From a virus (Duplodnaviria; Caudoviricetes), in the IMG/VR virus record IMGVR_UViG_3300022179_000741, positions 1 to 24,678 of that record: a stretch of DNA of 24,678 nt; one strand, 5' to 3'. Numbering within the stretch: the first letter of the stretch is position 1; each line of letters starts with the position of its first letter. The notes below the pieces were generated by a model. The model made no database searches. It was given only the letters and a program-made list of their open reading frames with translations, and had not been told where the DNA came from. A program made the position numbers and the translations under genes. Shown here piece after piece: positions 2,857 to 24,555 of this stretch.

Positions 2857-3071
2857 TGGGCGAGCTCAAACCTTTCCTAGTGATCGGCGGGTTGCTCGCC
2901 ACAACCCTGCTGATCGGCTACCTGGTTCGCCGGTACGAGAAGAACAATCAGCAACCGCTTGATGAGACACAGGTAAAAAATCTGCAGCTGATGGCTCAAG
3001 ACATGCGCAACACTAGGGCGCAAAAAAATAAGCTGATTGAACAGCACTTTGATGACGATATTTCTCGGTGA
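2856..3071 (+). CDS. small membrane-anchored protein
   Basis: N-terminal TM segment FLVIGGLLATTLLIGYLV followed by RR; TGATG overlap with the recombinase stop. Confidence 0.7.
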   Translation: MGELKPFLVIGGLLATTLLIGYLVRRYEKNNQQPLDETQVKNLQLMAQDMRNTRAQKNKLIEQHFDDDISR

Positions 3072-3077
3072 TATAGT
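3049..3077 (+). promoter_or_regulatory. putative internal sigma70 promoter
   Basis: TTGATG-17 bp-TATAGT; shares TATTTCTYGGYGATATA with the promoter at 2099. Confidence 0.55.
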
Positions 3078-3117
3078 GATAAAAAATACAGTACGAATAC
3101 TATAAGGATATTAATCA

Positions 3118-3450
3118 ATGACTTACCAGCCTGTTAAGCCGCTAGACGGCATGAAAGACCTAGATCGCAAGACCGTGGCTAAGTATTTCAACCGGGTTGG
3201 CCGCGGGCTCAACTGTCGGCTTGATGTGCCAATTTTGGTCATTGATGACGTGAAATGGGCAGCCAAGATCTTCAATGAGCTCTCCAAAGAGCTGACCAAG
3301 ATCGCCTGGGAAGATGAGCGAACCGACATCTGGCGCATCCTTGAGGCCAGGTACTCAATGGAGGCCGCCAAGCGCGAACTTCATCATCGCAACGAGAAAA
3401 AAGTAGGTAAGGCCGAGTTTAAGAAACTCACCGACAACCCCTACAGGTAG
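3118..3450 (+). CDS. hypothetical protein (110 aa), moron-like
   Basis: TAAGGA RBS, AT-rich leader, own promoter upstream and hairpin downstream. Confidence 0.8.
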   Translation: MTYQPVKPLDGMKDLDRKTVAKYFNRVGRGLNCRLDVPILVIDDVKWAAKIFNELSKELTKIAWEDERTDIWRILEARYSMEAAKRELHHRNEKKVGKAEFKKLTDNPYR

Positions 3451-3454
3451 TAGG

Positions 3455-3482
3455 TCAAACGGAAATCACCGTTTGAATTTTT
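3455..3482 (+). terminator. putative intrinsic terminator (or operator palindrome)
   Basis: TCAAACGG-aaatca-CCGTTTGA followed by ATTTTT. Confidence 0.55.
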
Positions 3483-3516
3483 ATAATTGCTTTAATGACA
3501 ACGGAAGGGGTAAAAA

Positions 3517-3807
3517 ATGGTGCCAAAACATGACACTACACGGGCAGAATCCCGCGCATATGTGTATTCCGACTTTCCAAGCCGGAACAACTACATATGG
3601 GGTTTGTCGCATAATTTGTATTCCGAAAATTGCGGCGACAAACACAAGACTCTTGCAGCGCAACACGACTCTCTGACCCCCTGGTCAGACCACCGCATCC
3701 AAGCAATTCTCAGACCTGAACGCCGGCAGGCGATCGCCGAAGCGCTGTTCGAGGTGATCCTTTTCGCCCTGTTCGGGGCGATGCTGGTATTCGCTTATTT
3801 CAGCTAG
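3517..3807 (+). CDS. hypothetical protein with C-terminal transmembrane helix
   Basis: GGAAGGGG RBS-like sequence; C-terminal LFEVILFALFGAMLVFAYFS. The start is uncertain because the 5' half overlaps structured repeats. Confidence 0.5.
   Translation: MVPKHDTTRAESRAYVYSDFPSRNNYIWGLSHNLYSENCGDKHKTLAAQHDSLTPWSDHRIQAILRPERRQAIAEALFEVILFALFGAMLVFAYFS
3604..3631 (+). other. degenerate dif-like (XerC/D) site
   Basis: TTGTCGCATAA-TTTGTA-TTCCGAAAATT versus E. coli dif GGTGCGCATAA-TGTATA-TTATGTTAAAT; good XerC arm, poor XerD arm (6/11). Confidence 0.35.
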
Positions 3808-3816
3808 GAGGCGGCC

Positions 3817-4128
3817 ATGCAGACCGCCACCTTGGGTCGCGCCCTGCGCGACGCCCAGCTGACTCTTTTTGAGCACAGAGACACAGAGTTCCTAGAACGC
3901 TGTCGAGCACTAGCCGTTGAGATCGCCCGCCAACAAGGCACGGTGTGCATCAACGACATAAGAGCACAGCTGCGCTTGCCCGCTGAGACACACCCGTCCG
4001 TCCTGGGCGCGGTTTTCAGGTCAAAAAAATTCACGGCTGTCGGCTTCACCGAGGCCACCCACAAGGCCGCTCACGCCCGCGTCGTGCGCGTCTATCAACT
4101 CGCCGAGGAGGAGAACAATGGCAGGTAA
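3817..4128 (+). CDS. conserved-looking phage protein, probable winged helix
   Basis: AGGAGG RBS; GTVCINDIR...HPSVLGAVFR...HARVVRVY. Confidence 0.8.
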   Translation: MQTATLGRALRDAQLTLFEHRDTEFLERCRALAVEIARQQGTVCINDIRAQLRLPAETHPSVLGAVFRSKKFTAVGFTEATHKAAHARVVRVYQLAEEENNGR

Positions 4129-5074
4129 AAAAACCCCGGACACCATGCTGTCCTGCAGCCGGCTGCCGGCAGTCATGGGGCTGTCTAAGTACAGCACACC
4201 GAACGACGAACTCGAGGTCAGCATCAACGCCATCAAAGGCCAAGACCGCGACAATAAGCAGAATGAATCGATGGCCTGGGGCGACCGGCTTGAAGCCGTC
4301 ATCCTGCGCGAGGCAGCCGAGCGCCTGCAGCTGGCTGACCTGGTCACAGAGCACGACCAAGCCCGCTTCCACGAAAGCCTGCCGCTGTGCTGCAGCCTGG
4401 ACGGCACCGGCGACGGCCACGGCCAGATCCTTACCACCGACCCTGACCGCGGGATCTACGTCATCGGGCAGGACAGCATCCGGCTGGACGGCGTCGGAAT
4501 TCTTGAGGCCAAGCTGACCGCAGTGCAACCCGAGGATGCGCCTGCCCTGTACCGTGGCCCGATACAGCTGCAAGGTCAGATGGATATTTGTTCGTCTAAA
4601 TGGGGCGCACTTTGCGTCTTGTACCAAGGTACAGCACTGCGTGTCTTCCTCTTTGCGCCGCATCAACAAACGGTGCAAACGATCGCCCAAATAGCGACAG
4701 CCTTCCAGGCAAAGCTCGACACCTTTAAGGCGACTGGCGAGATCGATTACTACCCACCATTAAACAGCGACGATGCCGACCGGATGTACCCGGTCGCGAC
4801 TGACACCGTCGTGCAGCTGGACATCGAGGCCGAGCTGTTGGCAGCAAAAATTGTCGACGCCAAGAACCGGGCAATCACCGCCGAGAAAGATCGTGCCGAA
4901 GCAGAGACCGAGCTCAAGACGATGCTTGGCAATGCAGGCAAAGCGATCGCCGGCAAGTACGAAATCAAATGGCCGATGCGCAGCTTCAAAGCACAGCCAC
5001 AAAAAATTGTGCCGGCAAAGGAGGCGTACTCAATCCGGCAGTCAACCCTATCAGTTAAGGAGGCAACAGCATGA
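4118..5074 (+). CDS. YqaJ/lambda-exonuclease family recombination nuclease
   Basis: SCSRLPAVMGLSKYSTP, WGDRLE, SLDG, LEAK and QLQGQM motifs; lies upstream of RecT. Confidence 0.9.
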   Translation: MAGKKTPDTMLSCSRLPAVMGLSKYSTPNDELEVSINAIKGQDRDNKQNESMAWGDRLEAVILREAAERLQLADLVTEHDQARFHESLPLCCSLDGTGDGHGQILTTDPDRGIYVIGQDSIRLDGVGILEAKLTAVQPEDAPALYRGPIQLQGQMDICSSKWGALCVLYQGTALRVFLFAPHQQTVQTIAQIATAFQAKLDTFKATGEIDYYPPLNSDDADRMYPVATDTVVQLDIEAELLAAKIVDAKNRAITAEKDRAEAETELKTMLGNAGKAIAGKYEIKWPMRSFKAQPQKIVPAKEAYSIRQSTLSVKEATA

Positions 5075-5259
5075 CACGCGAACTAACCAATCTCGAGAAG
5101 GCACACGACCGCGCTGTTGTTGCTCTGCTCAACACCATCCCAAAATGCAGCGAAGAAGAAGCGCTCGAGATCGTCGAGTCGTTTACCGCGCTGGTTCTGT
5201 ACACCATCGAAGCATTCCTACCGGAGGGCGAGAAGCATGACGCAACTGACTACAACTAA
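5071..5259 (+). CDS. small acidic hypothetical protein
   Basis: TAAGGAGG RBS; ATGA overlap. Confidence 0.75.
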   Translation: MTRELTNLEKAHDRAVVALLNTIPKCSEEEALEIVESFTALVLYTIEAFLPEGEKHDATDYN

Positions 5260-6247
5260 TCGCCAAGGCTTTGCGCCCGCCACGATGGGCGAGGCGATGG
5301 AGTTTTCAAAAATGCTGGCCGAGTCCAGCATGGTGCCGCGTGCCTACCAGGGCAAGCCGCAGGACATCATGGTCTGCGTGCAATGGGGCTATGAGCTGGG
5401 TCTCGCACCCATGCAGGCGCTGCAGAACATTGCCGTCATCAACGGCAAGCCGAGCGTCTACGGTGACGCCATGATGGCCCTGGTGCAGGCCTCTCCGGTC
5501 TGCGAGGGCATCGATGAGCACATCGAAAACGAAGGCACGCCGAACCCGGTGGCAGTCTGTATCGCCAAGCGCAAAGGTCGCAACCCGGTGATCGCCAGGT
5601 TCTCGGTCGAGGATGCCAAGCGGGCAGGGCTGTGGGGCAAGCAGGGGCCGTGGCAGGCGTACCCAAAGCGGATGCTTCAGATGAGAGCTCGAGGCTTTGC
5701 CCTGCGCGACGCCTTCCCTGACGTGCTCAAGGGTCTGATCACCGCCGAGGAGGCAGCTGACTTCCCGGAGGAGGCCAAGCCGCGGGAGAGGGATGTCACC
5801 CCGGCCAAGCCGGCGAACCCGCTCGATGCAATCGCGCCGCCACCGTCGCTGCCGGAGCCCGAGCTCGAGCCCGAGCCGCTGCCGCAGCCGATCGAGATCG
5901 AGCTCATCCATGTCGATTCGCCGAACGATTCTGCCGAATCTGCAGAACAGGTTGCAGAACTTGTTGTGTTAGGCGACTGGCCGCTGATGGTGCCTGGCAA
6001 GGAGCAGCCGTTCAGCGTCCACGCCAGCCAGCAGGAATGGCAGCAGGCCTATGAAGATCTAGCCGACAAGACCGCCAAGGCCGGCAAGCGACCAGCTCGG
6101 GAGCGAATGACCATCCTGAAGGAGCTGCGCGAGGTTAATGAGCTGCAGCTGAAGCGGATCAACAGCATTGACCGGGTGCGCCACACGCAGTCGTACAGCG
6201 GCAGGATCAACGCGCTGGGTGCCGCAGTACCTGCCGATGAGAAGTAA
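5237..6247 (+). CDS. recT: RecT-family single-strand annealing protein with C-terminal extension
   Basis: GYELGLAPMQALQNIAVINGKPS, AKRAGLW..GPWQAYPKRML..RA..FALRDAFPDVLKG; start MTQLT at 5237. Confidence 0.85.
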   Translation: MTQLTTTNRQGFAPATMGEAMEFSKMLAESSMVPRAYQGKPQDIMVCVQWGYELGLAPMQALQNIAVINGKPSVYGDAMMALVQASPVCEGIDEHIENEGTPNPVAVCIAKRKGRNPVIARFSVEDAKRAGLWGKQGPWQAYPKRMLQMRARGFALRDAFPDVLKGLITAEEAADFPEEAKPRERDVTPAKPANPLDAIAPPPSLPEPELEPEPLPQPIEIELIHVDSPNDSAESAEQVAELVVLGDWPLMVPGKEQPFSVHASQQEWQQAYEDLADKTAKAGKRPARERMTILKELREVNELQLKRINSIDRVRHTQSYSGRINALGAAVPADEK

Positions 6248-10392: not shown

Positions 10393-12300
10393 TCAAGCAA
10401 TAGCTAAGAAGATGAATGTTCCACCGCTTTGGTTAATTTGCACTGGCGCTGTGCTGCTAATCTGAAATCCAGAGTTCACAGGGTCAATATAGTCTGTGTT
10501 GGTCACTTCAGCCGCAGTCGAGTTCAGAAGCAGGTAAGGGTCGTTACCACTAATAATCCCTCTAGCAGTATCCCAAACGTACCAATCGCCCGTTGAGCTT
10601 GTGCGCTTAATAAGAACAAATCTAGCGCCAGCAGTAAAGCCACAGTCAATCGTTAGCGTCGTTCCTGTACCTGTGTAACTACCTACTTTGGATACGCCTG
10701 CAACAGTAGCGAATAGGTAAGTAACGTAGGTGTCGTTAAGGTTGTTTGCTCTTGATCCAGTGCCGACGCTAAATACCGTTGACGTTGGTGCTGTAGATGT
10801 CCAAAACCCGGCGTTTGTGGCTTCAGCATCTGTTTGGTTTAGGAACAAATACTTATTTGTGCCGCTAAACAACGTATGCCATACAATCCAATCTGAGTTA
10901 GTGGCTGAGTTTCGTTTCTTGCGAATCATCAATTCAGGTACTACACCTAGACCGTGATTTATTGTATGTCCTGATGCTGTTCCTGTATCACACACCACAT
11001 CAAAGAAGCCGGGAGCGCGTCTAAACATTTGATAAGAGCGTTTGGAACTATTTCCATCGTCGCTTGCTCTTACTTGCGTATTACTAGTAAATATGCCACC
11101 AGACTGCGTTGATTCAGCACTTGTTGCATTACTTTCTAAAAATTTATCTGCACCACGCAATCTGTCCATCCAATACCATTGGATAGTTCCAGCCAAATTT
11201 TGACCTTCAAATAGAAAATCTACAGGAAAATTGGATGTTTGAAGTGCATCAACACCAGTAAAAGTAGTGGGAACAAACACACTCGTTCCACTCGTCGGCG
11301 TTTTCATCGGGCGACGGATGGCGATGTAGATGTAGGTGGTCGTTGGGTTTTCAAAACCGTTTACAAGCTCAAATCCTGTAGCCGTTGGGCAAACATATTT
11401 AGTAGTGAAAACATTTTCTGCCGCAGATGTGTTTGCATACAGAGTATTCATCCCTGTTTGCGAAAACCCTCTCATGTTGTCTGCAATCCACCAATTTCCT
11501 GTTGGCGTACTTCCGCTTGCTGCTTTCCATATCACCAACTGAGGCTCATACCCCAACGTCACCGTCGCATTACCGCTTCCATCAGTTGTAAACGACCCAC
11601 AACTAATCACATTGTCCGTACCAGACGCGCCAAAGCCTCCAGCGTCGTGAGCGAATAGGTAGGCAACGTAGGTTTCGTTATTGACGTTTGAATTGCCACC
11701 AACAGTAAATTGCGTAGATGTGGGTGCCGTGTCTCCCCAACTGGCAGACGTAGTGGTTTCTGAATTGGTTCCATTTAATCGTAAGTCTTTCGTTGCCCCA
11801 ATAGACCGATGATAAACAAACCAATTACCGGCGTAGCTTAAAGATTTTGCGATTATGCAGCCCGGCACACTACCCAACGAATGGGAAATGGCTCTAGGAC
11901 TTGTCCCGTTACCTGTCCACGTCACAATGTCAAAGAACTTTTCTTGCTCGCGGAATGTCCATGAGACTAAATTATTTGAAGATGTATTTATTGCAGCATT
12001 TGAACCTATTGAAAAACCATTTGTGTTAAATGCAGTAAGTCCAGTCGCAATAGTGCTTTGAGCATCAGTTACATTTGAAAAAATAGCCTTTGTTGTTCCT
12101 CTAGCCGTATCATATAAATTATGGCTAAATGTTGTTGATCGATCTTTAAACCAAACTAACCCTCCTTTAGTAGAAAGGTCGATATTATTAGTAATGGTTT
12201 GTGATGCCCCAGTACCCGTGTAAAGGTATGTCGAGAATACGTCCTCGATGTATTGAGGAACAGCCGCCGCAGCAGCACCTAAGAGCTTATTAGTTAGCAT
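10393..12300 (-). CDS. tail-fibre-associated repeat protein (adhesin-like, six ~100-aa repeats)
   Basis: Repeats of the form YTGxG...GxxP.LVxxK...W...RG...L..N.T.AE; low GC; lies between the fibre and the chaperone. Confidence 0.8.
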   Translation of the reverse strand: MLTNKLLGAAAAAVPQYIEDVFSTYLYTGTGASQTITNNIDLSTKGGLVWFKDRSTTFSHNLYDTARGTTKAIFSNVTDAQSTIATGLTAFNTNGFSIGSNAAINTSSNNLVSWTFREQEKFFDIVTWTGNGTSPRAISHSLGSVPGCIIAKSLSYAGNWFVYHRSIGATKDLRLNGTNSETTTSASWGDTAPTSTQFTVGGNSNVNNETYVAYLFAHDAGGFGASGTDNVISCGSFTTDGSGNATVTLGYEPQLVIWKAASGSTPTGNWWIADNMRGFSQTGMNTLYANTSAAENVFTTKYVCPTATGFELVNGFENPTTTYIYIAIRRPMKTPTSGTSVFVPTTFTGVDALQTSNFPVDFLFEGQNLAGTIQWYWMDRLRGADKFLESNATSAESTQSGGIFTSNTQVRASDDGNSSKRSYQMFRRAPGFFDVVCDTGTASGHTINHGLGVVPELMIRKKRNSATNSDWIVWHTLFSGTNKYLFLNQTDAEATNAGFWTSTAPTSTVFSVGTGSRANNLNDTYVTYLFATVAGVSKVGSYTGTGTTLTIDCGFTAGARFVLIKRTSSTGDWYVWDTARGIISGNDPYLLLNSTAAEVTNTDYIDPVNSGFQISSTAPVQINQSGGTFIFLAIA

Positions 12301-14435
12301 CAGTTATTTCCTACTCGCGCACCGTAAACCTGACCGCCAACTTTCCACAGCACGATTACCGTATAACCTGTGGTATTTAACGTAGGCGCAGAACCAGAGT
12401 CTGTTTTCCACGAAACGCCAGATGTACCAAAGGTCGTGTCAGTCCACGTTAGTGTGTAGGCTGAACCATCGTCCACCATCAGCGTCACGGCCTCACCGTT
12501 GGCGAAGTTCGTCGCCTTGGGTGTCCGGTTAGCACCGAGCGTGATGAGCTGGATTGAGCCGTTGCCAGGATCGATCTCAAAGGCCGCGCCGTCGGTGATG
12601 GTGAAGATGTCCTCGAGGATCGTGCCGGTGATTGCCGGGTCGGTCAGCGTCTTGTTCGACAGCGTTTCAGTACCGCTCGGCGTCACATAGTCTGTGCCAG
12701 CCACAGCTGCGGCTATCACACCGCTCGAGGCCTTCAGCACGCCAGTTGTCGTCGCCCGCTTGATGGTCTTACCACCGGTGCCAGAGAACAGCGCGATCTC
12801 GTTGTCGACGCTCGACGATTGACCGGCCACGTCGCCAGTGCCAGGGAACGTCTGCCCACCGTTGAAAGTGATGTTGCCGGTCATCGTGCCGCCGGTTGTC
12901 GGCAGAGCTCCGACATCTGCAGCAGTCACCGAGGCGACTGCCTTGAACGTCAGGATGCGCACTTCGTCATCCAGCGTCAGCGCGGTGGTGAAGGTGATCG
13001 TCGAGCCGTTGGTCGCGGTGATCTCGTCGCTGTACAGCAGCGCACCGTTGACCCAGACGTAAGTGAAGCCGACACGGTAGCCACCGGTAAACGTGTAGCT
13101 GGTCTGGCCTGCTGTTGCCTTGAAGCTCTTCTCGACGGTCAGATCCGGCAGGGTCGGCAGCGCCTGCCAGGCCGAGCCGGTGTATACCCGCATCTCGTTG
13201 GCCGCGCTGTTGAAGTACAGCGCACCGGTCAGCAGCGCATTGCCGTCGTTGTCCAGCGTCGGGTTGCTGGTCTTCGCGCCCAGGTATCGATCGTCGAAAG
13301 AGTCATAGCTTGCAGCTGCGGCAGTTGCCGAGCTCGCTGCAGCGGTTTCGCTTGCAGCAGCTGCGGTCGCACTGTTGGATGCATTGGTCGCGCTAGTGCT
13401 TGCCGAGCTCGCAGAGTTGGCTGCGTTGGTCGCACTGGTTGATGCGTTGCTCGCCGATGTCGAGGCCGACGATGCCGAGCTGGAGGCGTTGCTGGCCGAC
13501 GTGCTGGCAGAGCTCGCGCTGTTCGACGCATTGGTCGCCGATGTTGCCGCAGCGGTTGCGCTGTTGCCGGCGTTGGTTGCCGCCGTGCTAGCAGTCGTTG
13601 CCGCGCTCGAGGCTGTCGAGGCAGAGCTCGCGGCATTGGTTGCCGACGTTGATGCGTTAGACGCTGCAGTGCTTGCAGTGCTGGCCGAGCTCGAAGCATT
13701 GGATGCCGAGGTCGAAGCGTTTGATGCGCTAGTTGCTGCAGCGGATGCAGAGGAGGCCGCGTTGCTAGCTGAAGTCGAAGCAGCGGCAGCATCCACCAGC
13801 AGCGTCCACTTGGCGCTATCGGTGTTGGTGTTGATCGGCTGCGAACCGGTCGAGGTATGCTGGACGATACACTGCCAGATGTTGTTGTTGGTGGTGTCCT
13901 TGACGATGTCTCGGACGTAGTACAGCGTGCTCGCCGCCCAGTTGCCGCGGTTGGTGCCAAGCGTGTCAGCGATAGCAGGGTTGCCGTTGGCATCGAAGCC
14001 GAGTGCTTTGTTCGCACGCAGTGCTGCTCGAGGCAGGATCATGTTGATCGTGGTCGGGTCGGTCTGTGGTGCAGACAGCGCACGCGCCAGACCCTCGGCA
14101 TTCTGCTGCGCAAAGATCGTTTGCTGATCCAGCTCGTCGTTTAGCGTGTTGGCGAAGAAGTCGCCACCGGTCACAAAGTCCGTGGTGCGCTGGATCGTCC
14201 GGTTGCCGACGATGGCGATCTGCGTCGCACCGGTCGGCGATGCGGTCAGCGTCACGCTGCCGGTGCCGTTGCTGTTGATCGTCACCGTGTAGTCGGTGGT
14301 CAGCGTCAGCAGCGCGTCGTCCTTGTAGACCGATATGTCGGTCGCCGCCAGGATCTCGAACGTGAACGCATACGGGCCTGTGCCTGAAGCGGCAAAGACC
14401 ACACGCCTTGTCACATTGTTAATTGGTACGCCCAT
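12300..14435 (-). CDS. main tail fibre protein (T7 gp17-like N-terminal anchor)
   Basis: N-terminal YAFTFEIL...LTLTTDYTV...LNDELDQQTIFAQQ; Ala/Ser/Thr stalk; SYDSFDDRYLGAK..PT.DNDG.AL..GALYFN motif. Confidence 0.9.
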   Translation of the reverse strand: MGVPINNVTRRVVFAASGTGPYAFTFEILAATDISVYKDDALLTLTTDYTVTINSNGTGSVTLTASPTGATQIAIVGNRTIQRTTDFVTGGDFFANTLNDELDQQTIFAQQNAEGLARALSAPQTDPTTINMILPRAALRANKALGFDANGNPAIADTLGTNRGNWAASTLYYVRDIVKDTTNNNIWQCIVQHTSTGSQPINTNTDSAKWTLLVDAAAASTSASNAASSASAAATSASNASTSASNASSSASTASTAASNASTSATNAASSASTASSAATTASTAATNAGNSATAAATSATNASNSASSASTSASNASSSASSASTSASNASTSATNAANSASSASTSATNASNSATAAAASETAAASSATAAAASYDSFDDRYLGAKTSNPTLDNDGNALLTGALYFNSAANEMRVYTGSAWQALPTLPDLTVEKSFKATAGQTSYTFTGGYRVGFTYVWVNGALLYSDEITATNGSTITFTTALTLDDEVRILTFKAVASVTAADVGALPTTGGTMTGNITFNGGQTFPGTGDVAGQSSSVDNEIALFSGTGGKTIKRATTTGVLKASSGVIAAAVAGTDYVTPSGTETLSNKTLTDPAITGTILEDIFTITDGAAFEIDPGNGSIQLITLGANRTPKATNFANGEAVTLMVDDGSAYTLTWTDTTFGTSGVSWKTDSGSAPTLNTTGYTVIVLWKVGGQVYGARVGNN
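13310..13790 (-). repeat. degenerate coding repeat, Ala/Ser/Thr/Asn heptads (e.g. ASTSASN) of the fibre stalk
   Basis: About 160 codons of A/S/T/N with 7-residue periodicity. Confidence 0.85.
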
Positions 14436-14464: not shown

Positions 14465-17443
14465 TCACTGCTTGTACGAACCGCGTAGTTGTTTTCTCTC
14501 TTGCTCGATCTCAAGGCGCTCTTGAATGGCGGCACCGTAATCACTGTTGAGCAGCAAGGTTTTCCTTGCCGCCTCCATAAATTTGTTGTCAATCATCTTG
14601 ATGGTTTCTTGCTGATAATATTTATCAAGCATCAAAAAATCGGGTTGTTTTGCTTGGTGTACCAGCGCTTCTTGGACATTCATGCCGCCGATTTGAATGT
14701 CTTGCGCATAGATCCGCAGCAGTTCGTTGTATTCCTTTGTGTCAAGTTTTACGGTGGCACCGACACCCTGATTATTCGTCTGGCTGATTGCCCTTGCCGG
14801 CATGGCCAGCGGCATTCCAAGCGAGATCAACATGCGGTCGACTTCCTGCATCTTTGACTCAGACGTGCGGATACCAGTAAAGCCCAGCCAAGGCCGAGCC
14901 GGGTCGAGCTCTGGCTCAACCTCTGCCCAACGATTCAACCGGTCTGGCAGATCACCAGACAGCCCAGGCGTGCGCGAGCGCCAGCGCAGATAACCCTCGT
15001 ACCAACCCTTAACGCCGGTCGGCATGTCCGGTGGCGCAGTAATATCCTTTTTGCTGCCGTCAATGTATCGCTCAATGCCAGCCTGGAATGAGCTCCATGC
15101 ACCTATTGGCGAGCCGCCAATAACATAGCCAGACACGTTTCCAGCAATCTGATTGATCACGTCCTTCATTGATTGCTTGGGATTTGGGATGCTGTTCCCA
15201 AGTGTGCCAACCATGCCGCCCAGCGTCTGCATAAACGGCGACTGTCCGATGTATTGGTACAGGCCAAACAGACCGCCGAGACCGATTTGGGCAATCATGT
15301 CTTGGTCGTCTTCATACCGCGCATATTCAACGAAGTCGGCAGACATGGCGAACGGCGCAGCAATCGGATCAAACCCACGCATACTGATATACAGCTTGCC
15401 ATTCTTACCAACTGATGGATCCATGTTTGGAATATTCTCAAGATATTCCTTAAACTCGTCATCCCATTCACCAGCATTCAACACGAACGAATAAGGCCGC
15501 CAGCCATCGCGTAGATAAACTTTGCGCAACTCTGAATTACCAGGGCCGCCACCAGTGATTCGACCGTCAACAGCCAGCGAGGTCATCGCAATCATCGCGG
15601 TGCTGCCAAGGCCAAACTTAGCAAGCGCCAGATCACGTTGCGCACCACCAGCCTTTATGTCCTTCCACCATTGCTGCGACAACGGAGCAAACCAACTGTG
15701 CTGCAAACCCTCAGAAATCAACCAGGTCGGCGTGCGTACAAATGGCATCGTGGTCTTAGTCAGCACGTTGACGTTTGAGACCTCTTGCACCTTGGCGGCA
15801 AACCCGTCGAGCTCCCGCGTGTACGTCAGCATCTTGGCAAAGTCTTCTGCCGCTGCGTCCATAAAATCTGGTGGGTTGTTCATGCTGTCGATAATGCGTT
15901 GACTGGCCATACTGCTCGCAGTAGCCTCATCAACACCATCTGTCAGCAGCTGGTTTTCATAGCGAACCCCATCACGATAGGCCTGCGCATTGACCTCAAA
16001 TTTGTAGGCAAGCGCCTTGAATGCCTCGTCCTGGGATTGAATGACTCGACCAGGCACCGCCACAAACTTTGACCACAGGGTTAAGCCAGCTGCTGTCTTG
16101 CCCTCAAACCCGTATTCGGCAGCATCCAGACCAGCTGCGCCGCCGCGAGTTTCTAGCTTGGTGGCAGCCGCAGCGCCAATCCGATCATCCAGCGTCTTGC
16201 CTGTCTTGAGCGCTTCCCATCCCAAACGCATCGCGTCTTTGCTGCTCTGAACGTAGCCAGCAAACCCAGCAAATGCCTCACCCATGAACACGCGATCAGG
16301 GTTAGCGCCAGGCAACAGTTGCCGCGCTCCACCAATTGCTCCAGCTGTGAAGCGGGTAAAAGGCTGCAACAGCGCAAATGAGCTGTTGCTAATGAAGTTG
16401 ACAGTTGGCGTCGCAGTCCAAGAAAGCAGCCCGTTAACCCAAGTGGACAACCACAAATCTTTGACAAATCCAACCTTGGACAGCTTGTCGATCAGCTTTG
16501 CCTTTGCCGAGTTATCGACTAGGGACGCGATGCCTTCGGCTGCCTGCCGGATGTTTTCATCAATGTTTGGATCATCAAGCAAAGTCCTGATTGATTTCAT
16601 GTCCATAGCCGAAATGCTTGTCCGGCTTTGGTTCAATACGGCAAGCGCCTGCGCTGGCGCAACCTGAATATCCTTGGCTGCCTGGCCAACATGGACGGTC
16701 ACCGCCCACTGCTCTAGAAACTTGCGCTGCAGCTCCTTGTCGCCCGGGGTCTTTAGCAGTGCCTCAGTAACCGTGTTGAGCTCCCTAACGTGCAAAGGAA
16801 AGGCAAGCGAAGCGCGGCGCACTTCAAAGGGCAGGTCGCCGTAGCGGTCTGCAATAGCGCGAATCTGAGCTGTGTATTCCGGCCCCATGCCTTCACGCGC
16901 AACCCGCTCTTCAATTTCAGCAAAAGTAATGCGTTGGTAATCAATGCCAGCGTTCTTCAATACCGCTTCGGTGTATTGAGCAACGCTTTGCTCGTCGTAC
17001 AAATCAAGGTTGAATGGCTGCTCCGGCGGCTTGCCGGCACCTTTTGCTGTCGCCGCATCTGCCTGCAATGTCTGCGGGGAGGGTGGCTCAACCGCAGCCT
17101 TCGGCATCTTGACAGCAGGCTTTGGCGCGGCTGCTTTAGGGGCGGCTGGGTTTGCCGCAGCAGGAGCAGGTGCCGGGGCGGCTGCTTCGGCGGCTGCAGC
17201 TGGAGGCGGCGACTCTGGTGCAGCCTTCATGGCGTCCAGCATGTCCAGCTGTTTCTTGCCGCGTACCGCCTTGCCGCCTTTTAGGACTTCTTTTAGAGCA
17301 GATCCGACCCCGGCAACCTGGACAGATTCAAACTCATCGACCGGCTCAACCAATGTCGATGGCGCTTCTTGCGGCGTCTTGTCTAGCGGAAGCGAACTAT
17401 CGACCAGCTGATCTAGGCGCTTGTTTAGGGGATCGATGGCCAT
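14465..17443 (-). CDS. large internal virion (ejection) protein
   Basis: 992 aa, helical, immediately upstream of the tail fibre as in podovirus gene order; Pro/Ala-rich N-terminus. Confidence 0.75.
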   Translation of the reverse strand: MAIDPLNKRLDQLVDSSLPLDKTPQEAPSTLVEPVDEFESVQVAGVGSALKEVLKGGKAVRGKKQLDMLDAMKAAPESPPPAAAAEAAAPAPAPAAANPAAPKAAAPKPAVKMPKAAVEPPSPQTLQADAATAKGAGKPPEQPFNLDLYDEQSVAQYTEAVLKNAGIDYQRITFAEIEERVAREGMGPEYTAQIRAIADRYGDLPFEVRRASLAFPLHVRELNTVTEALLKTPGDKELQRKFLEQWAVTVHVGQAAKDIQVAPAQALAVLNQSRTSISAMDMKSIRTLLDDPNIDENIRQAAEGIASLVDNSAKAKLIDKLSKVGFVKDLWLSTWVNGLLSWTATPTVNFISNSSFALLQPFTRFTAGAIGGARQLLPGANPDRVFMGEAFAGFAGYVQSSKDAMRLGWEALKTGKTLDDRIGAAAATKLETRGGAAGLDAAEYGFEGKTAAGLTLWSKFVAVPGRVIQSQDEAFKALAYKFEVNAQAYRDGVRYENQLLTDGVDEATASSMASQRIIDSMNNPPDFMDAAAEDFAKMLTYTRELDGFAAKVQEVSNVNVLTKTTMPFVRTPTWLISEGLQHSWFAPLSQQWWKDIKAGGAQRDLALAKFGLGSTAMIAMTSLAVDGRITGGGPGNSELRKVYLRDGWRPYSFVLNAGEWDDEFKEYLENIPNMDPSVGKNGKLYISMRGFDPIAAPFAMSADFVEYARYEDDQDMIAQIGLGGLFGLYQYIGQSPFMQTLGGMVGTLGNSIPNPKQSMKDVINQIAGNVSGYVIGGSPIGAWSSFQAGIERYIDGSKKDITAPPDMPTGVKGWYEGYLRWRSRTPGLSGDLPDRLNRWAEVEPELDPARPWLGFTGIRTSESKMQEVDRMLISLGMPLAMPARAISQTNNQGVGATVKLDTKEYNELLRIYAQDIQIGGMNVQEALVHQAKQPDFLMLDKYYQQETIKMIDNKFMEAARKTLLLNSDYGAAIQERLEIEQERKQLRGSYKQ

Positions 17444-17697
17444 TACGTCTGTTCCTTGTTCTGTTCAATCGGCACCTGTTCCGGCGTAGCAGTCGGCACT
17501 TGGGCTGTCGCGGTCTGGGTAGCAGCCGGCTGCGGAGCTTGGTGCAGATCCGCAAAATTGAATGGCTTCAAGTTCTGCAGCGCTGCCTGGTCAAGCTCAA
17601 AGGAATCAGGAATGTCCTCCGGCTCCCGGTCGAACAGCGACTGATTTGGGAACTGCTGCAGGAAATCTTCTTCGTTTAGCGTGACTTCTTTTTTCAT
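17443..17697 (-). CDS. small acidic protein, coupled to the upstream GP88-like gene
   Basis: GGAG RBS; ATGA overlap upstream and TAATG overlap downstream; Asp/Glu-rich with a Q/T/A/P tail. Confidence 0.75.
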   Translation of the reverse strand: MKKEVTLNEEDFLQQFPNQSLFDREPEDIPDSFELDQAALQNLKPFNFADLHQAPQPAATQTATAQVPTATPEQVPIEQNKEQT

Positions 17698-19514
17698 TTG
17701 GGCTCTCCAAGCGGCTGATAGTCATTCGTCAACGTGATCTGACCTGTGCCTTGCTTGGCAATCGTAACATCCCTGTTGCCGTAAACCGGCTTCCCGCTCT
17801 CATCCCTGACCTGCTTGCCCTTAACCTTTTGGATCTGCGGGTCGAAGTGGACAAAGAATCCGTTGGAGTCTTTTGCTGCACTAACTTCTTTGCGCGTATT
17901 CGCCTTGTTGCGTAGACCAACGATGACGCCATCAGCACCAGGCGGCTGGATGTCGAGCGGCCTGAAGTCATAGGTGTCGCCATCGATGACCTTGTAGATT
18001 TTGCCGGTCTCTTCATCGATCACACGCTCTGGCAGGATTGACTTGTGGCTAAACGCCATTGCGACATTAGACCCAGAATCCAAGCGGCGGCGCATCTGCT
18101 TCCAGTTCTGGTTCGGGTTGTTGATCGATTCTTTCAGGCCGTTGTACCCAGCAGGCTGCGACACACCCGTCGAAGAGTAGGTGTAGTGATGGTTCGGTGC
18201 GATCGGATTCGTGTTGTTCTTGGTGTAGTCGTAGAACGTCACATCTGGATTGCCCTTGATGATCTTCTCGTATACACGCGGGTTGACGTCAGACAGCACG
18301 TTTAAGCGAATCGCAAGGTGGTTGCCGTTCTGTGCTGCCTTGATCTTCAACGCGGTAATTTCGTCGTTGAGCTTGATCGCAAAGTTTTCAGGGTCGCGCA
18401 TGAATGCCTGCGTCAGCTCAAAGCTGCGCATACGCGGGCCTTTGAGTGCATTCAGATCAGCGCCACCACCCATGAAGAAGTAGCCACCAGAAGTCTTGCC
18501 CAGGCAGTCACCAGCGCAAGATGCTGAGTTCGGGCAGGTTGTGAACTTGCCCTCTTTGAATGCTGGCGAAAGTGCCAGACCAGCGCTCTCGACGTTGCGG
18601 CCATCCGGCAGCGTGATCGGCTCGCCGCCTTCCACACCTTTCTCAGTCTTGAGCAGCTTGCCGTTGGTTGTCAGCAGCGGCTTAGTCTTGCCTGCTGAGT
18701 TGGTGCCAAGCCACTTGGCCAGTACCTGGTTGGCCTGCTTGGTTCGCTCAATGCGTGCCGGCTGGTCGAGCGTAGTGAAGTTGGCGATCGCATTGTCGAA
18801 GCCACCGGACAATGTGTTGATGCTCGGCTGTACCTTGATCGGCTCGTTGAAGACCTTGATGTCCGGCGCTGCTTTCATCAAGCCGCCGGTCTTGGCCATA
18901 TAATCCTCGGCCATCTTGCCGGCAACTGGTGCGAGCTCAGTGCCGAGAGCTTTTGCGCCCTTGAGGCCAGCTTTGGCTACGTCAACATAGCCACCAGGCG
19001 CAGCAACTTCCCCAATCGATTCGTATGGATTTTGTCCGCCGGCAACGGTGCCGACGTTTTCATCCAGCCACTTCCTAATCTCTTCGGTCTTTGGCAGGAT
19101 GGTCTGCTCTTCCATGCCACGCAGGAAAGCATCCAGCACACTCTCGCCGGCACCGCGTCTGAAGATCTCTTTCACACCATAGGCCAGCGACTCGATGTCA
19201 CCAGGCAGGCCGACAAAGCCTTGTGTCATGCCTTTGACCGTCGCAGCGCCCATGTCGAGCATTGCCCCTAGAGGCTTTTCAAGACCACCGGCAGCCTCCG
19301 ACTGCGCCTTGGTAACGCCACCGCGGCCAAAGCGTGGCTCCGGTACTCCAGCTGGGCCGCCAGCACCTGTCGGCGCTTCAGGCTCACCAGTAACCACAAC
19401 CTCCGGCAGGCGACCAGTATCAGCAGCAGCCAGCTGCATACCGTCAATAGACTCTGCGGGATACTTTGCCGCCAGCAGGTCGTTTATGTATTCCTGTTCA
19501 ATCAATGAACGCAT
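17694..19514 (-). CDS. putative internal virion protein with C-terminal GP88-like (radical-SAM-like) domain
   Basis: N-terminal ~220 aa are Gly/Ala-rich and amphipathic; C-terminal motifs CPNSASCAGDCLG, IRLNVLSD, FYDYTK, NVAMAF, VIDGDTYDFRPLD, IVGLRNK. Confidence 0.75.
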   Translation of the reverse strand: MRSLIEQEYINDLLAAKYPAESIDGMQLAAADTGRLPEVVVTGEPEAPTGAGGPAGVPEPRFGRGGVTKAQSEAAGGLEKPLGAMLDMGAATVKGMTQGFVGLPGDIESLAYGVKEIFRRGAGESVLDAFLRGMEEQTILPKTEEIRKWLDENVGTVAGGQNPYESIGEVAAPGGYVDVAKAGLKGAKALGTELAPVAGKMAEDYMAKTGGLMKAAPDIKVFNEPIKVQPSINTLSGGFDNAIANFTTLDQPARIERTKQANQVLAKWLGTNSAGKTKPLLTTNGKLLKTEKGVEGGEPITLPDGRNVESAGLALSPAFKEGKFTTCPNSASCAGDCLGKTSGGYFFMGGGADLNALKGPRMRSFELTQAFMRDPENFAIKLNDEITALKIKAAQNGNHLAIRLNVLSDVNPRVYEKIIKGNPDVTFYDYTKNNTNPIAPNHHYTYSSTGVSQPAGYNGLKESINNPNQNWKQMRRRLDSGSNVAMAFSHKSILPERVIDEETGKIYKVIDGDTYDFRPLDIQPPGADGVIVGLRNKANTRKEVSAAKDSNGFFVHFDPQIQKVKGKQVRDESGKPVYGNRDVTIAKQGTGQITLTNDYQPLGEPK

Positions 19515-19515
19515 G

Positions 19516-21333
19516 TCATTCTTTCAGAATATTGATCAGCTTCTCAATGCGTTTCAGTTCGTCTTTCGTAAACACCACAACCTTTATTGGCAGTATGTCT
19601 TTCTTTCTCTTTGCCTCAAGCGCCATCAAATCTGCCATGCTCGTATTTGCATTGATCGTCACGTTGACGCCAAACTCTTCTTTCGCTTTTGCCGATATTT
19701 TTTCTAGCTTTGCTTGAGCGTCTTTTTTGCGATCAATTGCAACATCATTTTCCCTAAACCCTTTTGTTACTTGGTTGGCTATTCCTTCGTAGTCAACCCC
19801 CGTCCTTTTTTCTGGCGGCAGCGCTCTTTGCTTGTCTTGCTCAATGCGCACAAGATCGTCAAACCGCTGCTTAAGTTTTTCATGCTTAACAAACTCAGAT
19901 GATTTTGGATCGAAAGCACTGGTTAGGTTGTCTGGCACCCCAGAGAATCGACGCAATGTTTGCTCTGCAGCCGCAATCTGCGGCTTTTCAGTTGAGTAAA
20001 TAAATTCTTGCAGCTCGTTTAATTGCGCTGGGTTGATTTGCCCACGATTGAAATAAGGCAGCAATTGCCCAGGGTCTGTAATTCGATTGTTTTTAATTTC
20101 ATCTTTTAAGCGCATTCTTACCAACGGATCGCCTTTATTGTCTTTGTCATCCTTCAAGAATTTGTCGAGCTGATCCATTGTTCCCGCCAAAGGAACCATT
20201 TGAGCCTCAAGCGCACGCCTTTGAGCCGGGCCTGCTCTGTGCCATTCCGCATATAGCTCAACCAACCTTCTGTCTTTTAATTTCTTCTCCTCTTCTTGTT
20301 TTTGCCTTCTGTTGCTTTCAACGTCAACAGACTGCTGAGTAAAAGAATTTAGAATCTTAACAAATGAATCCGGGTCATTTTGTTTGATGTATTGGATGAT
20401 GGGGCTAACTCGTCCAAGATCGCCCGCAATAATCTTGTTTCGAGTCCCCTCATAATCACCCATTAAATTCGGGTCAGAGACAATGTGAACAAGCACAACA
20501 TTTTTTCTGACTTCGCGGAGTTGGGTTTCAAACTTTTCGGAATATTCTTTTTGAAACGCAAGGCCACCATGAGTTAACGCTGTTGAGGCAACAAAATTGC
20601 GAACTACATTTACATAATCTTCAACACTTCTTTGCTGGCCATTTTCATCAACCCAAAAACCTTGTTCTATTTTTGCTTGCAGTAAACGCAATTGCTCGTT
20701 AAAGCCAAGGTCAAATGTTATGAGCCGCTGTTCTTTTTCGCGCTTGAGCTGAACCTCGTATGCTTTGTTTAGGACGGTTGATCCGTGCGTTTTGATGGTT
20801 GCGGCAACCTTGAGCGCTGCGTCTGGATCTGCCTTGGCAACGACCTTTTGAAAACTTCCGGCAAGTGCGGCGATCTTGTTTTCAACATCGCTCGATTGCA
20901 ATTCGTTGTTCTCAACTTGCACCAACATTTTTCCAAGCTCATTGCTGGCGTGAAGAATAAAGTGGCCGGCGAGCTCTTCTGATCTTGCTTTGCGAACGGC
21001 AGCATTAAAAAAGCTAGGGAAGTCTCCTGACACTTTTCCAATGCCGCCGCCCAAACCAACTACAACGCCATCACGCGCCAGTTGTAAATCAATGTCGGTT
21101 ACTGGATTATTTGCAACCCAATCTAACCCTTCTTTTGTACGCAGCTCGGCAGAGTATTTGTTGATGCTCGTGGCCATCCGGTCGAGGATCTGCGCATACA
21201 CGTTGCTGACATTTGCTTCAGCGCGGGCAGCGGTCATGTAGTCGACCTCGGTCGGCACGACCTGCTGCATCGGCACACCGCCGGCACCGCGCAGCTGTAC
21301 TTGTCCTTCTGTCAGTCGCGTCGCCATCGTCAT
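19516..21333 (-). CDS. internal virion (ejection) protein, T7 gp15-position
   Basis: 605 aa helical protein following the gp14-like gene; mostly low GC. Confidence 0.7.
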   Translation of the reverse strand: MTMATRLTEGQVQLRGAGGVPMQQVVPTEVDYMTAARAEANVSNVYAQILDRMATSINKYSAELRTKEGLDWVANNPVTDIDLQLARDGVVVGLGGGIGKVSGDFPSFFNAAVRKARSEELAGHFILHASNELGKMLVQVENNELQSSDVENKIAALAGSFQKVVAKADPDAALKVAATIKTHGSTVLNKAYEVQLKREKEQRLITFDLGFNEQLRLLQAKIEQGFWVDENGQQRSVEDYVNVVRNFVASTALTHGGLAFQKEYSEKFETQLREVRKNVVLVHIVSDPNLMGDYEGTRNKIIAGDLGRVSPIIQYIKQNDPDSFVKILNSFTQQSVDVESNRRQKQEEEKKLKDRRLVELYAEWHRAGPAQRRALEAQMVPLAGTMDQLDKFLKDDKDNKGDPLVRMRLKDEIKNNRITDPGQLLPYFNRGQINPAQLNELQEFIYSTEKPQIAAAEQTLRRFSGVPDNLTSAFDPKSSEFVKHEKLKQRFDDLVRIEQDKQRALPPEKRTGVDYEGIANQVTKGFRENDVAIDRKKDAQAKLEKISAKAKEEFGVNVTINANTSMADLMALEAKRKKDILPIKVVVFTKDELKRIEKLINILKE

Positions 21334-21950
21334 TTACCTTTCTTGCCTGTATCGCCGAAGTACCGCTCGCCAAAATTGACTGCAGCAGTTGCTAGCGTTG
21401 CGTTACTTAGAAGCCCACCTGTCGTGCGAGCTGCACCGCCAGCCTGTTCGTACTGCGCACCCTGGCGCTCTGCGGTGAACAGGTTCAGCATGTTCTGGTA
21501 CTCGGTCGACTGCACCAATGCGGTCGCGTCTTCGTAGCCCATGATGCGAGCCGTCAGTGCATTCAGGTCGGTGATGCCCACGTCAAACATGGTTGCTCTG
21601 ACGTTTTCGTTTTGCACGGCCTGCACACTGCCTTCGCCCAGCACCACACCGTTTGCAGCAGCTCGAGCGCGAATCGCAGCGTTGGTCGCACGCATATTTT
21701 TCAGCAGCGTGTTGCCAGCGATCTGGTAGTTCTGCGACTCCATCTGCGACTTCTTGAGCGTGCGACCTGCCTGGATGGCGGCATACATCTCTGCCATGTC
21801 GGCACGCACCTCGGCCACAGCGAGGTTGTCGCGTGCTTGCAGCAAATAGCCGGTCTGCTGCTGAATGCCAGCAGCGAGCTGCATCTGCGATTGCGCATAG
21901 CTGGTAAGAAACCCAGCGCCTGCGACAAGTTGTCCTGGTGTAATGGCCAT
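21330..21950 (-). CDS. internal virion protein, T7 gp14-like position
   Basis: Ala/Gln-rich, ARAAANGV...GS motif; directly downstream of the nozzle gene. Confidence 0.75.
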   Translation of the reverse strand: MAITPGQLVAGAGFLTSYAQSQMQLAAGIQQQTGYLLQARDNLAVAEVRADMAEMYAAIQAGRTLKKSQMESQNYQIAGNTLLKNMRATNAAIRARAAANGVVLGEGSVQAVQNENVRATMFDVGITDLNALTARIMGYEDATALVQSTEYQNMLNLFTAERQGAQYEQAGGAARTTGGLLSNATLATAAVNFGERYFGDTGKKGK

Positions 21951-21952
21951 CG

Positions 21953-23941
21953 TCAGGTTCCCGAATAAACAGCGACTCGGTAATCAAGGCCGAGCAGATT
22001 CATCTTCAGCGGCAGACTCTGCGTCACTTCGATCGCCTGCTCGCGGCTGTAGCCGAGGATGCCGTTGACGCGCTTGATGCCGGTGAACGTCGGCACCGGG
22101 TCATCCAGCAGCGGGTTGTCCATCAATCTAAAAGCCACTTCCTGCGCGTTGAGCAGGCAGTGCTGCGTGTCGTCCAGCACCGCGCTGATCTCAACGATGC
22201 GCTTCTTGAACGACACACGGCTGCCGGTCTGCAGCTTGATCTCCACCGGCATCGTCTTGGCATAGACCGTAAACGGCAGGCCGACTTCGTAGCTGGTGGT
22301 CGATTCACGATCAAACGTCACCGCGCCACCAGCGCTCACAGTTTCATTACTTTGCGGCACACCATCAGTGATGACGTTCAGCGCTTTGCCGACGTGCGGC
22401 AGACCAGAACCGACACCACCAGCCGAGCCACCAGTAAATGCGCAGTCGGTATACAGATCGTCCTTGAACTGCTCAATAAAGTACCGGGTTGTGCTATTGA
22501 ACACGCGCTTGGTCACGACGTAGATCTGCGTCACGTCGACACCAACATCCATGAAATCACCGTCGGTGATGTACTCGCTTGGTGACGTGATCTGCTGACT
22601 ACGCATGATCGAGAACACCGCCATCGTGCCGTCGCTGGTGTTGGTCATCATCAGCAGGTCGGCTTCCTCGGTGCTGGCAGCACGACGCAAGGCGATGCGC
22701 TGCGGGCCTTTCAACAGATGGCCTGCAAGCAGCGAGATGCGTTGAGTGATATAGGTCAGCTGCGTGTCAGAGAAGACGAACTCATTAAGCGACTTGCCCT
22801 GGCGCTGGATGTAGATCGAGCCAGACTCAACCGACTGCACCCGCGTGCCAGGCTTGATGCCGTTGCGGCTGACGTTCTTAAAGGTAAACGTCAGCGGTGT
22901 CACCGGATCGGTACCTTGCTGCGGAACGACGAACTCACCGCCGGTCGTAAACACTTGGAAGTCACGCGACGAAATGATGTCCGTGATTACGTTCAGGTCA
23001 TTGGTGTCGAGGGTCGCCTCGACTGCGTCATCGTCCAGCGATTCGCTTGGCACGAAATCGAAGAACAGATTGATCTTTGAGCCCCAGATGGTCGACGGGC
23101 GAGACTTGCTGCCGCCAAAGTACAGCCGACCTTCATGGAACGTCACTGACCGCGGCCAGCCCTTGCCAGAGCTCCACACGTCCTCGTAGCCGGTCTCGAG
23201 CTCCCAGCTGCCGTTGGCAACCGCTGCGGTGTTGAAAAACGGGTATTCGGTGATGGCGTCGACCGATGTGGCAGAGTTGAACCGAACGATCTTTGCTCGA
23301 CCCTGTGGGCTGGCATTGATGTACTGGTTGACATGGCCGCTGCTAAACACCGAGGCCGATGCGGTAATCGTGATGTTGCCGGCCACGGCAGACGGCGTGA
23401 TCGTGCCGGACGGGTTGCTTGCCGACAACGTGAAGGCGTACTTCGGGATGCTGTCAAACGTAATCGTGCTGGCCGTCCAGCTGGCATCGTTTGCGCCGCG
23501 CACAATCTTGGTCGGCTGCAGATCTGGGTGAACGACAATCAGGGTGTCAGCAGACTGTGTCCAGCACATGTCATCGACAATGCTGCTGCCGATGCTAGTC
23601 GTCAGATAGTTGTTGCCGCTGCTGTTGATGTTGGCCACCACAGCGCCGTTCTTGATGACATACATGCGGTTGTGCGTGAAGCACAGCATATAAGAGTCAT
23701 CGACCGAGAACTGAAACGGCACCAGGCGCACGCCATTGCCGGCAGACGCGGTGCTACTGTTGGGCAGCTCAAGGATGTGTTTCAAGCCTGGCCGGCGTCG
23801 CAGTCCACCTTGCGGCTGGATCAGCACGTTGGTCGCCTTGGCCAGCGCGTTTGGATAGGACTGCAGGTCAACCCGCGCACGGAGCAGCGGGTCGAGCTCG
23901 CCCGTGCTGAAGTTGGTCGCGAAGTCGACGAAGCGCGGCAT
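21953..23941 (-). CDS. tail tubular protein B / nozzle (T7 gp12/P22 gp10-like)
   Basis: Start MPRFVDFATNFSTGELDP at 23941; QGGLRRRPG, TQSAD and GWPRSVTFHEGRLYFGG motifs. Confidence 0.9.
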   Translation of the reverse strand: MPRFVDFATNFSTGELDPLLRARVDLQSYPNALAKATNVLIQPQGGLRRRPGLKHILELPNSSTASAGNGVRLVPFQFSVDDSYMLCFTHNRMYVIKNGAVVANINSSGNNYLTTSIGSSIVDDMCWTQSADTLIVVHPDLQPTKIVRGANDASWTASTITFDSIPKYAFTLSASNPSGTITPSAVAGNITITASASVFSSGHVNQYINASPQGRAKIVRFNSATSVDAITEYPFFNTAAVANGSWELETGYEDVWSSGKGWPRSVTFHEGRLYFGGSKSRPSTIWGSKINLFFDFVPSESLDDDAVEATLDTNDLNVITDIISSRDFQVFTTGGEFVVPQQGTDPVTPLTFTFKNVSRNGIKPGTRVQSVESGSIYIQRQGKSLNEFVFSDTQLTYITQRISLLAGHLLKGPQRIALRRAASTEEADLLMMTNTSDGTMAVFSIMRSQQITSPSEYITDGDFMDVGVDVTQIYVVTKRVFNSTTRYFIEQFKDDLYTDCAFTGGSAGGVGSGLPHVGKALNVITDGVPQSNETVSAGGAVTFDRESTTSYEVGLPFTVYAKTMPVEIKLQTGSRVSFKKRIVEISAVLDDTQHCLLNAQEVAFRLMDNPLLDDPVPTFTGIKRVNGILGYSREQAIEVTQSLPLKMNLLGLDYRVAVYSGT

Positions 23942-24555
23942 CAGTTTCTCACCGCGATCAGGGTGTAGTCTTCCATCGCACGGGTCGGCTGACCCTGCGC
24001 ATCGATGTTCATAGCCGTGCGTAAGAAGCCGCCGCGGCCATTCTCGGACGGGTCGCCCACTGCCTTGCGCTCCCAGCGCAGCGACTTGTCCTGTTGTTCG
24101 GTGATCGGCTCGGCCAGATGCCAAGCCATCATGTACTTCATCAGCTGGGTGAAATACTGCGGCCAGGCGAACTCACCGACGCTGTACTGGTAGTCGATGA
24201 ACACGGCCTCAATATTGGTCAGCAGCTGGTCGCCTTGGATCTCCCAGTCTTTCTGCACTGAAGCGCCTGGGCTGGCGGTGTCATAAACAGCACGCGGGCC
24301 GGCCAGGCGATCACCCGGCAGCTGATAGGCGTATTTCCAGACCGATGTCGGCGCTGTCAGCAGGCGAGCGAGCTGCACCTTCTTGGTGTTGAAACTCCAC
24401 GGGTACATCACCAGCGTGGAGTCGCGGATGTCTGGGTACAGACGGTCGCAGACCGAGCTCTCGTCGGTGCCATCATTGAACGACGTGATGGCCTTTGCGC
24501 CAATCAGGAGCAGGGCATCTGAACAAATTGTGATCCCGGTATCACCCGCTGCCAT
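23941..24555 (-). CDS. tail tubular protein A / head-tail adaptor (T7 gp11-like)
   Basis: ICSDALLLIGAKAITSF, YPWSF and WKYAYQLP.D motifs; GAGG RBS. Confidence 0.88.
   Translation of the reverse strand: MAAGDTGITICSDALLLIGAKAITSFNDGTDESSVCDRLYPDIRDSTLVMYPWSFNTKKVQLARLLTAPTSVWKYAYQLPGDRLAGPRAVYDTASPGASVQKDWEIQGDQLLTNIEAVFIDYQYSVGEFAWPQYFTQLMKYMMAWHLAEPITEQQDKSLRWERKAVGDPSENGRGGFLRTAMNIDAQGQPTRAMEDYTLIAVRN

Follow-up and report, generated by a model that had tools for sequence, protein, structure and literature searches.

A GP88-family, radical-SAM-like domain as exchangeable cargo on a putative ejection protein of a MEP301-like podophage

The stretch of DNA that we analyzed, hereafter the window, is 24,678 nucleotides long (IMG/VR record IMGVR_UViG_3300022179_000741; completeness ~74%). 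Its structural block is encoded on the minus strand and runs in the order tail adaptor (tail tubular protein A, family match; 23941..24555), tail nozzle (tail tubular protein B; 21953..23938), a 206-aa ORF (21330..21950), a 605-aa ORF (19516..21333), a 606-aa gene (17694..19514), an 84-aa ORF (17443..17697), a 992-aa gene (14465..17443) and a tail fiber (family match; 12300..14435), with which the block ends. The closest cultured phage is Methylophilales phage MEP301, whose nozzle is 59% identical and whose gene order is shared; judged by these comparisons, the virus is a MEP301-like podophage. As in MEP301, the window also contains a serine recombinase, a YqaJ nuclease and RecT (2176-6247, plus strand), a set that may be a sign of a temperate lifestyle. 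GC content is 43-47% at 19500-21000 and 10500-12500 versus ~57% elsewhere, and these stretches cover the putative 605-aa ejection gene and a DUF7483 tail gene.

It had been proposed that the 606-aa gene is placed between ejection-protein genes. Downstream this is borne out by family match, as the 992-aa protein matches phrog_6651 ("internal virion protein") as well as internal virion protein D of cultured podophages, and is thus a D-like ejection protein. Upstream, family searches with the 605-aa and 206-aa ORFs gave no match; both are likely ejection proteins by position, the smaller one a small ejection protein, and the larger is conserved beside the slot described below.

The 606-aa protein consists of an N-terminal region that we refer to as the carrier (aa 1-225; 18840..19514, minus strand), which has no transmembrane-grade segment, and of a GP88 cargo domain (aa 226-606; 17697..18839, minus strand). 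Gly and Ala make up 29% of residues 1-225 versus 17% of the rest of the protein, in keeping with the predicted enrichment, although the region is a conserved domain rather than plain low-complexity sequence. We found no Pfam, PHROG or NCBIfam match for it. Its conserved helix ends at GLMKAAP (18864..18884, minus strand), where similarity to differently loaded relatives is lost.

All motifs originally listed for the globular domain were recovered: CPNSASCAGDC at aa 327 (nt 18536-18504), IRLNVLSD at 402, FYDYTK at 427, NVAMAF at 483, VIDGD at 509, DFR at 516 and IVGL at 531. Membership of the GP88 family was confirmed by PF17338, which matched aa 284-538 (17901-18665; E 7.4e-15, 55.9 bits against a gathering cut-off of 24.4, profile positions 7-219 of 230), and by phrog_1617 (E 8.4e-30). 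The protein has exactly three cysteines, C327-x5-C333-x3-C337 (18504..18536, minus strand), which are predicted [4Fe-4S] ligands and are invariant in 84/84 aligned homologues; four neighboring proteins have no cysteine. The same spacing was seen in 217 of 226 sequences, and x5-7 followed by x3 in 70 of 78 genome ORFs. Other conserved residues of the domain are N-x-K-L-x-K, R403, K432 and R518.

GP88 does not have the canonical CX3CX2C or CXnCX2C spacing, and the radical-SAM cysteine motif variants given in the available text of a recent survey all end in X2C (PMC9477430). The fold supported the suggested relation to radical-SAM enzymes at modest Z. A model of aa 223-606 (mean pLDDT 95) contains a partial (beta/alpha) barrel, and C327, C333 and C337 sit after model strand E85-90, placing the cysteine loop behind the first barrel strand. 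In an exhaustive VIA structure search, radical-SAM enzymes filled the top 20 of the 50 best rows (spore photoproduct lyase (SPL), Z 6.1; PFL-AE, 6.0; NifB, 5.9; QueE, 5.7; viperin, 5.3), the best unrelated row being at 4.5; a second structure comparison agreed. Because scores were nearly tied from rank 1 to ~15, all Z were below 8 and Foldseek against the PDB gave no match at E<=0.001, the first rank of SPL (4fhc; rmsd 5.0, 190 aligned residues, 8% identity) says little about the substrate. Such Z values alone may reflect a common arrangement, so that our argument rests on the ranking and on the position of the cysteine loop. We rejected the assignment of GP88 as an SPL orthologue because of the low identity and tied Z; in addition, no SPL profile in Pfam or NCBIfam matched, and the additional catalytic cysteine, the H donor in SPL, is absent. 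A PDB sequence search with GP88 gave no match, and PADLOC matched neither GP88 nor the small gene behind it. A feature search tied GP88 to DUF7227 (0.90) and weakly to DUF5131 (0.75), the latter being included in RadicalSAM.org according to the available text of its description (PMC9477430). Judged from the model, the GP88 domain likely works like a radical-SAM enzyme, though its cysteine spacing departs from the canonical motif.

The original prediction had also held that the N-terminus might carry interchangeable C-termini, and homologues of the carrier do bear differing ones. The DNA of one relative, L010, is 95% identical to window positions 23953-19279, loses similarity through the cargo and the small gene, and regains it at 17446; its protein shares aa 1-217 (56%) with the window protein and then diverges into another cargo. 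(In L010 a 138-aa, HNH-like ORF, recognized by eye, is also inserted between adaptor and nozzle; L010:2370-2786.) The third gene past the nozzle is therefore a variable slot. Sampled as every locus reaching that gene, it comprised 74 loci with 63 distinct proteins of 149-982 aa, including carrier-only relatives of 149-250 aa and carriers with cargos of 150-750 aa. A carrier profile, partly built from these same proteins, matched 65 of 73 slot proteins; MEP301 gp25 (161 aa), which was outside the profile, fills the slot and matched at E 1.3e-5. A tblastn search with the carrier found no cultured phage, nor was a cultured phage with a carrier-GP88 fusion found. Among 80 nozzle-fetched loci, 55 reached the slot: 19 had the carrier only, 15 a glycosylase-like cargo, 11 another cargo, 8 were cut off and 2 had GP88, a tally in which duplicates are kept and both GP88 slots are near-copies of the window. 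Other slot cargos included ART-PolyVal, zeta kinase, an HExxH domain (by eye) and one unnamed domain. On a tree of the upstream 600-aa protein (fast method, 64 rows, long-branch warnings), cargo class changed 19 times versus a minimum of 3, and GP88 changed 8 times. These results demonstrate that the carrier is polymorphic and that its cargo is exchanged among relatives.

An unnamed domain of ~450 aa with the motif EE.QSDWHQ is the slot cargo in L058:4909-6396, L060 and L069; it also occurs in polyvalent proteins and in 23 of 148 GP88 homologues, and its sole match is a partial one to phrog_7348. We rejected the reading of that "endolysin" family as a lysozyme cargo, as the match covers part of a 2564-position profile.

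The commonest alternative cargo matched DUF7178, weakly to strongly. Its model (pLDDT 91) aligned to the OGG2 glycosylase 3n0u over 197 residues (Z 11.8, rmsd 3.8), and the top 23 structure rows were all of the HhH-GPD fold, with PUGT (8z2m) at Z 7.2. A conserved Lys (54 of 60 sequences) and an invariant Asp (60 of 60) agree with the glycosylase assignment, the catalytic role of these columns being taken from the motif and not from superposition. With this domain, Foldseek against the PDB gave no match at E<=0.001, a PDB sequence search gave none, and a compact DUF7178-like query matched no cultured phage. A glycosylase-like protein is encoded as gp40 of Roseobacter phage CRP-738, two genes past the portal. 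When the window's own record was searched for DUF7178, no match was obtained, and the controls were silent as well. DUF7178-like domains (L014:5735-6664, L261-L340) model as OGG2/HhH-GPD glycosylases and comprise several divergent subtypes; L015-L017 look like one such subtype by eye and are below the profile threshold.

The relation between the two cargos was examined in giant LPD38 proteins. We fetched 80 giants by their C-terminal 600 aa, and hence without selection on GP88, although the seed was taken from proteins with GP88, so that the share of GP88 among them is inflated. After 11 giants shorter than 2200 aa (nine with neither domain, two with GP88) were dropped, 41 of the 69 remaining carried the glycosylase, 21 GP88, 7 neither and none both. 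On well-supported branches, GP88 underwent 8 or more changes (63 giants after duplicate removal), and in 8 independent pairs, drawn from a quick tree, the glycosylase moved opposite to GP88 in 7.7 (sign test, p ~0.008). Across all proteins gathered, which fall into three architectures, GP88 was present in 275, the glycosylase in 68 and both in none; the corresponding counts in 342 loci, with duplicates, fragments and GP88-selected loci included, were 126, 68 and 0. Portal-fetched loci gave 7 with GP88, 7 with the glycosylase, 0 with both and 66 with neither, too few for testing. In 7/7 sister pairs, GP88 or the glycosylase directly follows the same conserved N-terminal block, so that cassette replacement could give part of the exclusion. 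Tandem cargo is nonetheless possible, since ART rides with either domain (19/21 GP88 giants, 37/41 glycosylase giants), as does an unnamed domain. The original prediction left the target of GP88 open; its exchange for a domain of glycosylase fold narrows that target towards DNA bases.

Three of the seven giants with neither domain (L276, L339, L340) carry ParB-like domains, one strong and two weak, and the ParB-like domain is possibly a third alternative cargo in giants. A further domain of L340 is L5 gp82-like, from a family that adjoins GP88 in HMO-2011. Separately, on one IMG/VR contig of 44,837 bases the structural module occurs twice (L012 and L013), the cargo being GP88 in one copy and the glycosylase in the other; the contig is probably a chimeric assembly of two strains.

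A phmmer search of a 50%-cluster library returned 1203 cluster representatives of GP88 homologues at E<=0.001. Among the best 150 of these 1203, 77 were at least 1000 aa and 34 at least 2000 aa long. The original statement that GP88 is usually a stand-alone gene thus holds for most cultured phages and fails for the present clade, which is mostly fused. Scanning 56 homologues, picked mostly for length, revealed ART-PolyVal in 22, LPD38 in 10, InPase in 2, zeta in 1 and DUF7178 in 0. The clade occurs in three settings: the podophage slot, a position beside or between portal and capsid genes (covering two portal families), and LPD38 proteins of 2600-3900 aa. An LPD38 giant was detected by proteomics in phi24B virions and proposed to be an ejection protein, according to the available text of that report (10.64898/2026.04.10.717836); for the phage group of the window, our literature search found no virion proteomics. 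On sequence grounds, GP88 is predicted to be a recurrent virion cargo.

In cultured phages, stand-alone GP88 is mostly 240-270 aa long and located at genome ends. It is the first gene of HMO-2011, the second of Lo5R7ANS and the third of both HTVC115P and HTVC024P, all cultured podophages, with ranks that depend on possibly arbitrary record starts. We found it in 238 records of mycobacteriophages as well as in marine podophages, and among the mycobacteriophage matches listed it lies ~2-2.7 kb from the right end, which we take to be the early region. In the cultured jumbo phage Tunturi_5, GP88 is fused to InPase and adjoins an ART/GNAT polyvalent protein (L099:5350-11229, gp272-273), making this phage a candidate for virion proteomics. 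From these placements of GP88, we infer action at the start of infection.

We propose the following sequence of events. The N-terminal carrier would get the protein packed into the head and ejected with the genome, and we consider this packaging and ejection quite likely. After passage, the host would reload the [4Fe-4S] cluster, SAM would be bound and a radical formed, which seems reasonably likely. This requires a reductant, and the cluster, being oxygen-sensitive, has to outlast the passage or be assembled anew. A DNA base as the substrate is slightly favored. The altered base would reside on the phage's own genome, as a result of extracellular damage or as a host-defense adduct, and would be reversed in place, as SPL does, allowing the first transcription to proceed; in sister phages the same job would be done by excision with the OGG2-like glycosylase/lyase. 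A precedent is gp53 of phage M6, an SPL-like radical enzyme whose substrate is DNA according to the available text (PMC8989533). The weakest steps are survival or reloading of the cluster and the identity of the base. Furthermore, 19 of the 55 slots without cargo and 11 with another cargo imply that this task can be omitted or is carried out elsewhere. As a whole, the idea that a radical enzyme is delivered by the virion and reverses the alteration of a base on the incoming phage genome is a tentative proposal that falls short of an even chance.

The small gene behind GP88, overlooked in the original prediction, bears on this proposal. Its 84-aa ORF (17443..17697, minus strand) overlaps the GP88 stop codon, has a GGAG that resembles a ribosome-binding site, and encodes the motif L.xEDF.QQF(P/H)N...P.W. 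The family of this partner comprises 46 distinct proteins of 47-100 aa, located 3' of GP88 in two gene contexts, the podophage and the portal settings. Its profile matched 65 of 126 GP88 loci, 0 of 216 other loci and 1 of 76 cellular-genome loci. Such an association could point to an injected toxin with its immunity protein, in which GP88 harms host DNA or a host nucleotide, in the service of takeover or competition, and the small gene neutralizes it in the producer. This would agree with the layout of MuF toxins, which, in the available text, combine a carrier with or without a variable C-terminus and a small downstream ORF (PMC5576092); in addition, zeta kinase and ART cargos are effector types, and the glycosylase/lyase could cut host DNA too. 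However, the partner motif is fused in frame behind GP88 in 12 homologues (two of them weak), the profile had no match in any giant or cultured stand-alone GP88 locus scanned, and the partner is absent behind all 12 glycosylase cargos that we examined, 10 of them leading directly into a long gene. We therefore consider a toxin unlikely. The in-frame fusions suggest that the partner is a detached piece of the enzyme, and judged from these sequences it is most likely a C-terminal piece, acting as a cap or regulator.

Somewhat less likely again is an injected counter-defense enzyme acting on a small molecule, by which a nucleotide, an immune signal or SAM would be destroyed or diverted in a viperin-like manner; SAM lyase of T3 is an analogue for the destruction of SAM. 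Viperin, QueE and PFL-AE are within ~1 Z unit of SPL, the residues N-x-K-L-x-K, R403, K432 and R518 could bind phosphates, GP88 co-occurs with InPase and ART, and its stand-alone genes lie at genome ends. Nevertheless, this explanation does not account for the recurrent swap with a DNA glycosylase fold, and we reason that a metabolite pool is hard to empty with a slow radical enzyme packaged in a few copies.

It is improbable that GP88 works on DNA in the producing cell, by base modification or quality control before packaging or while it proceeds, and that it is tethered to head or ejection parts without having to be active after injection. Such an activity would sidestep the passage of an Fe-S cluster through the tail and would suit the GP88 genes that adjoin portals; furthermore, HhH-fold and radical-SAM enzymes both hypermodify phage DNA, as described in the available text of PMC8989533 and in line with the PUGT match (Z 7.2). 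Against it, stand-alone homologues are among the first and not the late genes, and family scans of the window, a record that is ~74% complete, revealed no base-modification genes. Least probable is a mechanical exclusion in which unrelated cassettes vie for one recombination slot and the function of GP88 is unrelated to DNA bases, since several other domains stack in tandem with either cargo and the two never occur together (275 GP88 and 68 glycosylase proteins), even though both follow the same block in the sister pairs and the podophage slot accepts unrelated cargos.

Rescue of a base on the incoming genome is thus the reading that we prefer. In its broader form, many uncultured phages would inject a base-rescue enzyme with their genome, either GP88, as a new branch of iron-sulfur radical enzymes with a detachable cap peptide, or an OGG2-like glycosylase, and damage acquired in the virion or a host-placed adduct would be reversed before phage expression, which is more tentative still. 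None of the results open to computation contradicted the original prediction. If true, the proposal would describe the first virion-delivered radical-SAM enzyme that we could find and would assign a function to both GP88 and DUF7178; an oxygen-sensitive radical enzyme would be an unexpected virion cargo. The GP88 family is large and functionally uncharacterized, and its recurrent one-for-one swap with a glycosylase-fold domain offers a concrete, testable substrate class, and cultured phages with stand-alone GP88 make a substrate test practical. In addition, the carrier, found both unloaded and with cargos of 150-750 aa, lends itself as a model of the loading and ejection of passenger enzymes by podophages. 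Among the papers listed by our literature search, within the scope of open-access main texts, we found no account of what GP88 or DUF7178 does, no virion radical-SAM enzyme and no description of such a cargo, such a carrier or the exchange reported here.

That virion proteins can bear varying enzymatic cargo is already known from polyvalent proteins and MuF toxins. Like the family of the window protein, polyvalent proteins place unrelated enzymatic domains on proteins that are encoded by virion genes and predicted to be injected, as outlined in the main text of PMC5512222, which does not mention GP88, radical SAM, Fe-S or glycosylase. The window protein is likewise encoded among virion genes, and GP88 homologues carry the hallmark domains ART-PolyVal (22/56), LPD38 (10/56) and InPase (2/56). 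Polyvalent proteins have several unrelated enzymatic domains per chain, as do these homologues, whereas the window protein has one cargo. MuF toxins similarly combine a virion domain conserved at the N-terminus with a variable C-terminus, exist in short and extended forms and have a small downstream ORF, according to the main text of PMC5576092, in which the words "radical" and "glycosylase" are absent. The carrier shares the variable C-terminus and the short forms; in contrast, it lies in a podophage ejection block, its partner can be fused, and aa 1-225 match no MuF or other domain in Pfam or PHROG. SPL (4fhc) and, in the available text of PMC8989533, M6 gp53 use the radical-SAM fold on DNA bases, as we propose for GP88, but neither is virion cargo; compared with SPL, GP88 is 8% identical, has non-canonical cysteine spacing and lacks a fourth conserved cysteine. 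MEP301 (MW452941) shares the structural gene order, and its gp25 is a carrier only, without cargo or partner. Finally, the window protein has a full match to the GP88 domain of PF17338/phrog_1617, to which its clade adds the fusion to a virion protein, an N-terminal helical extension and the partner.
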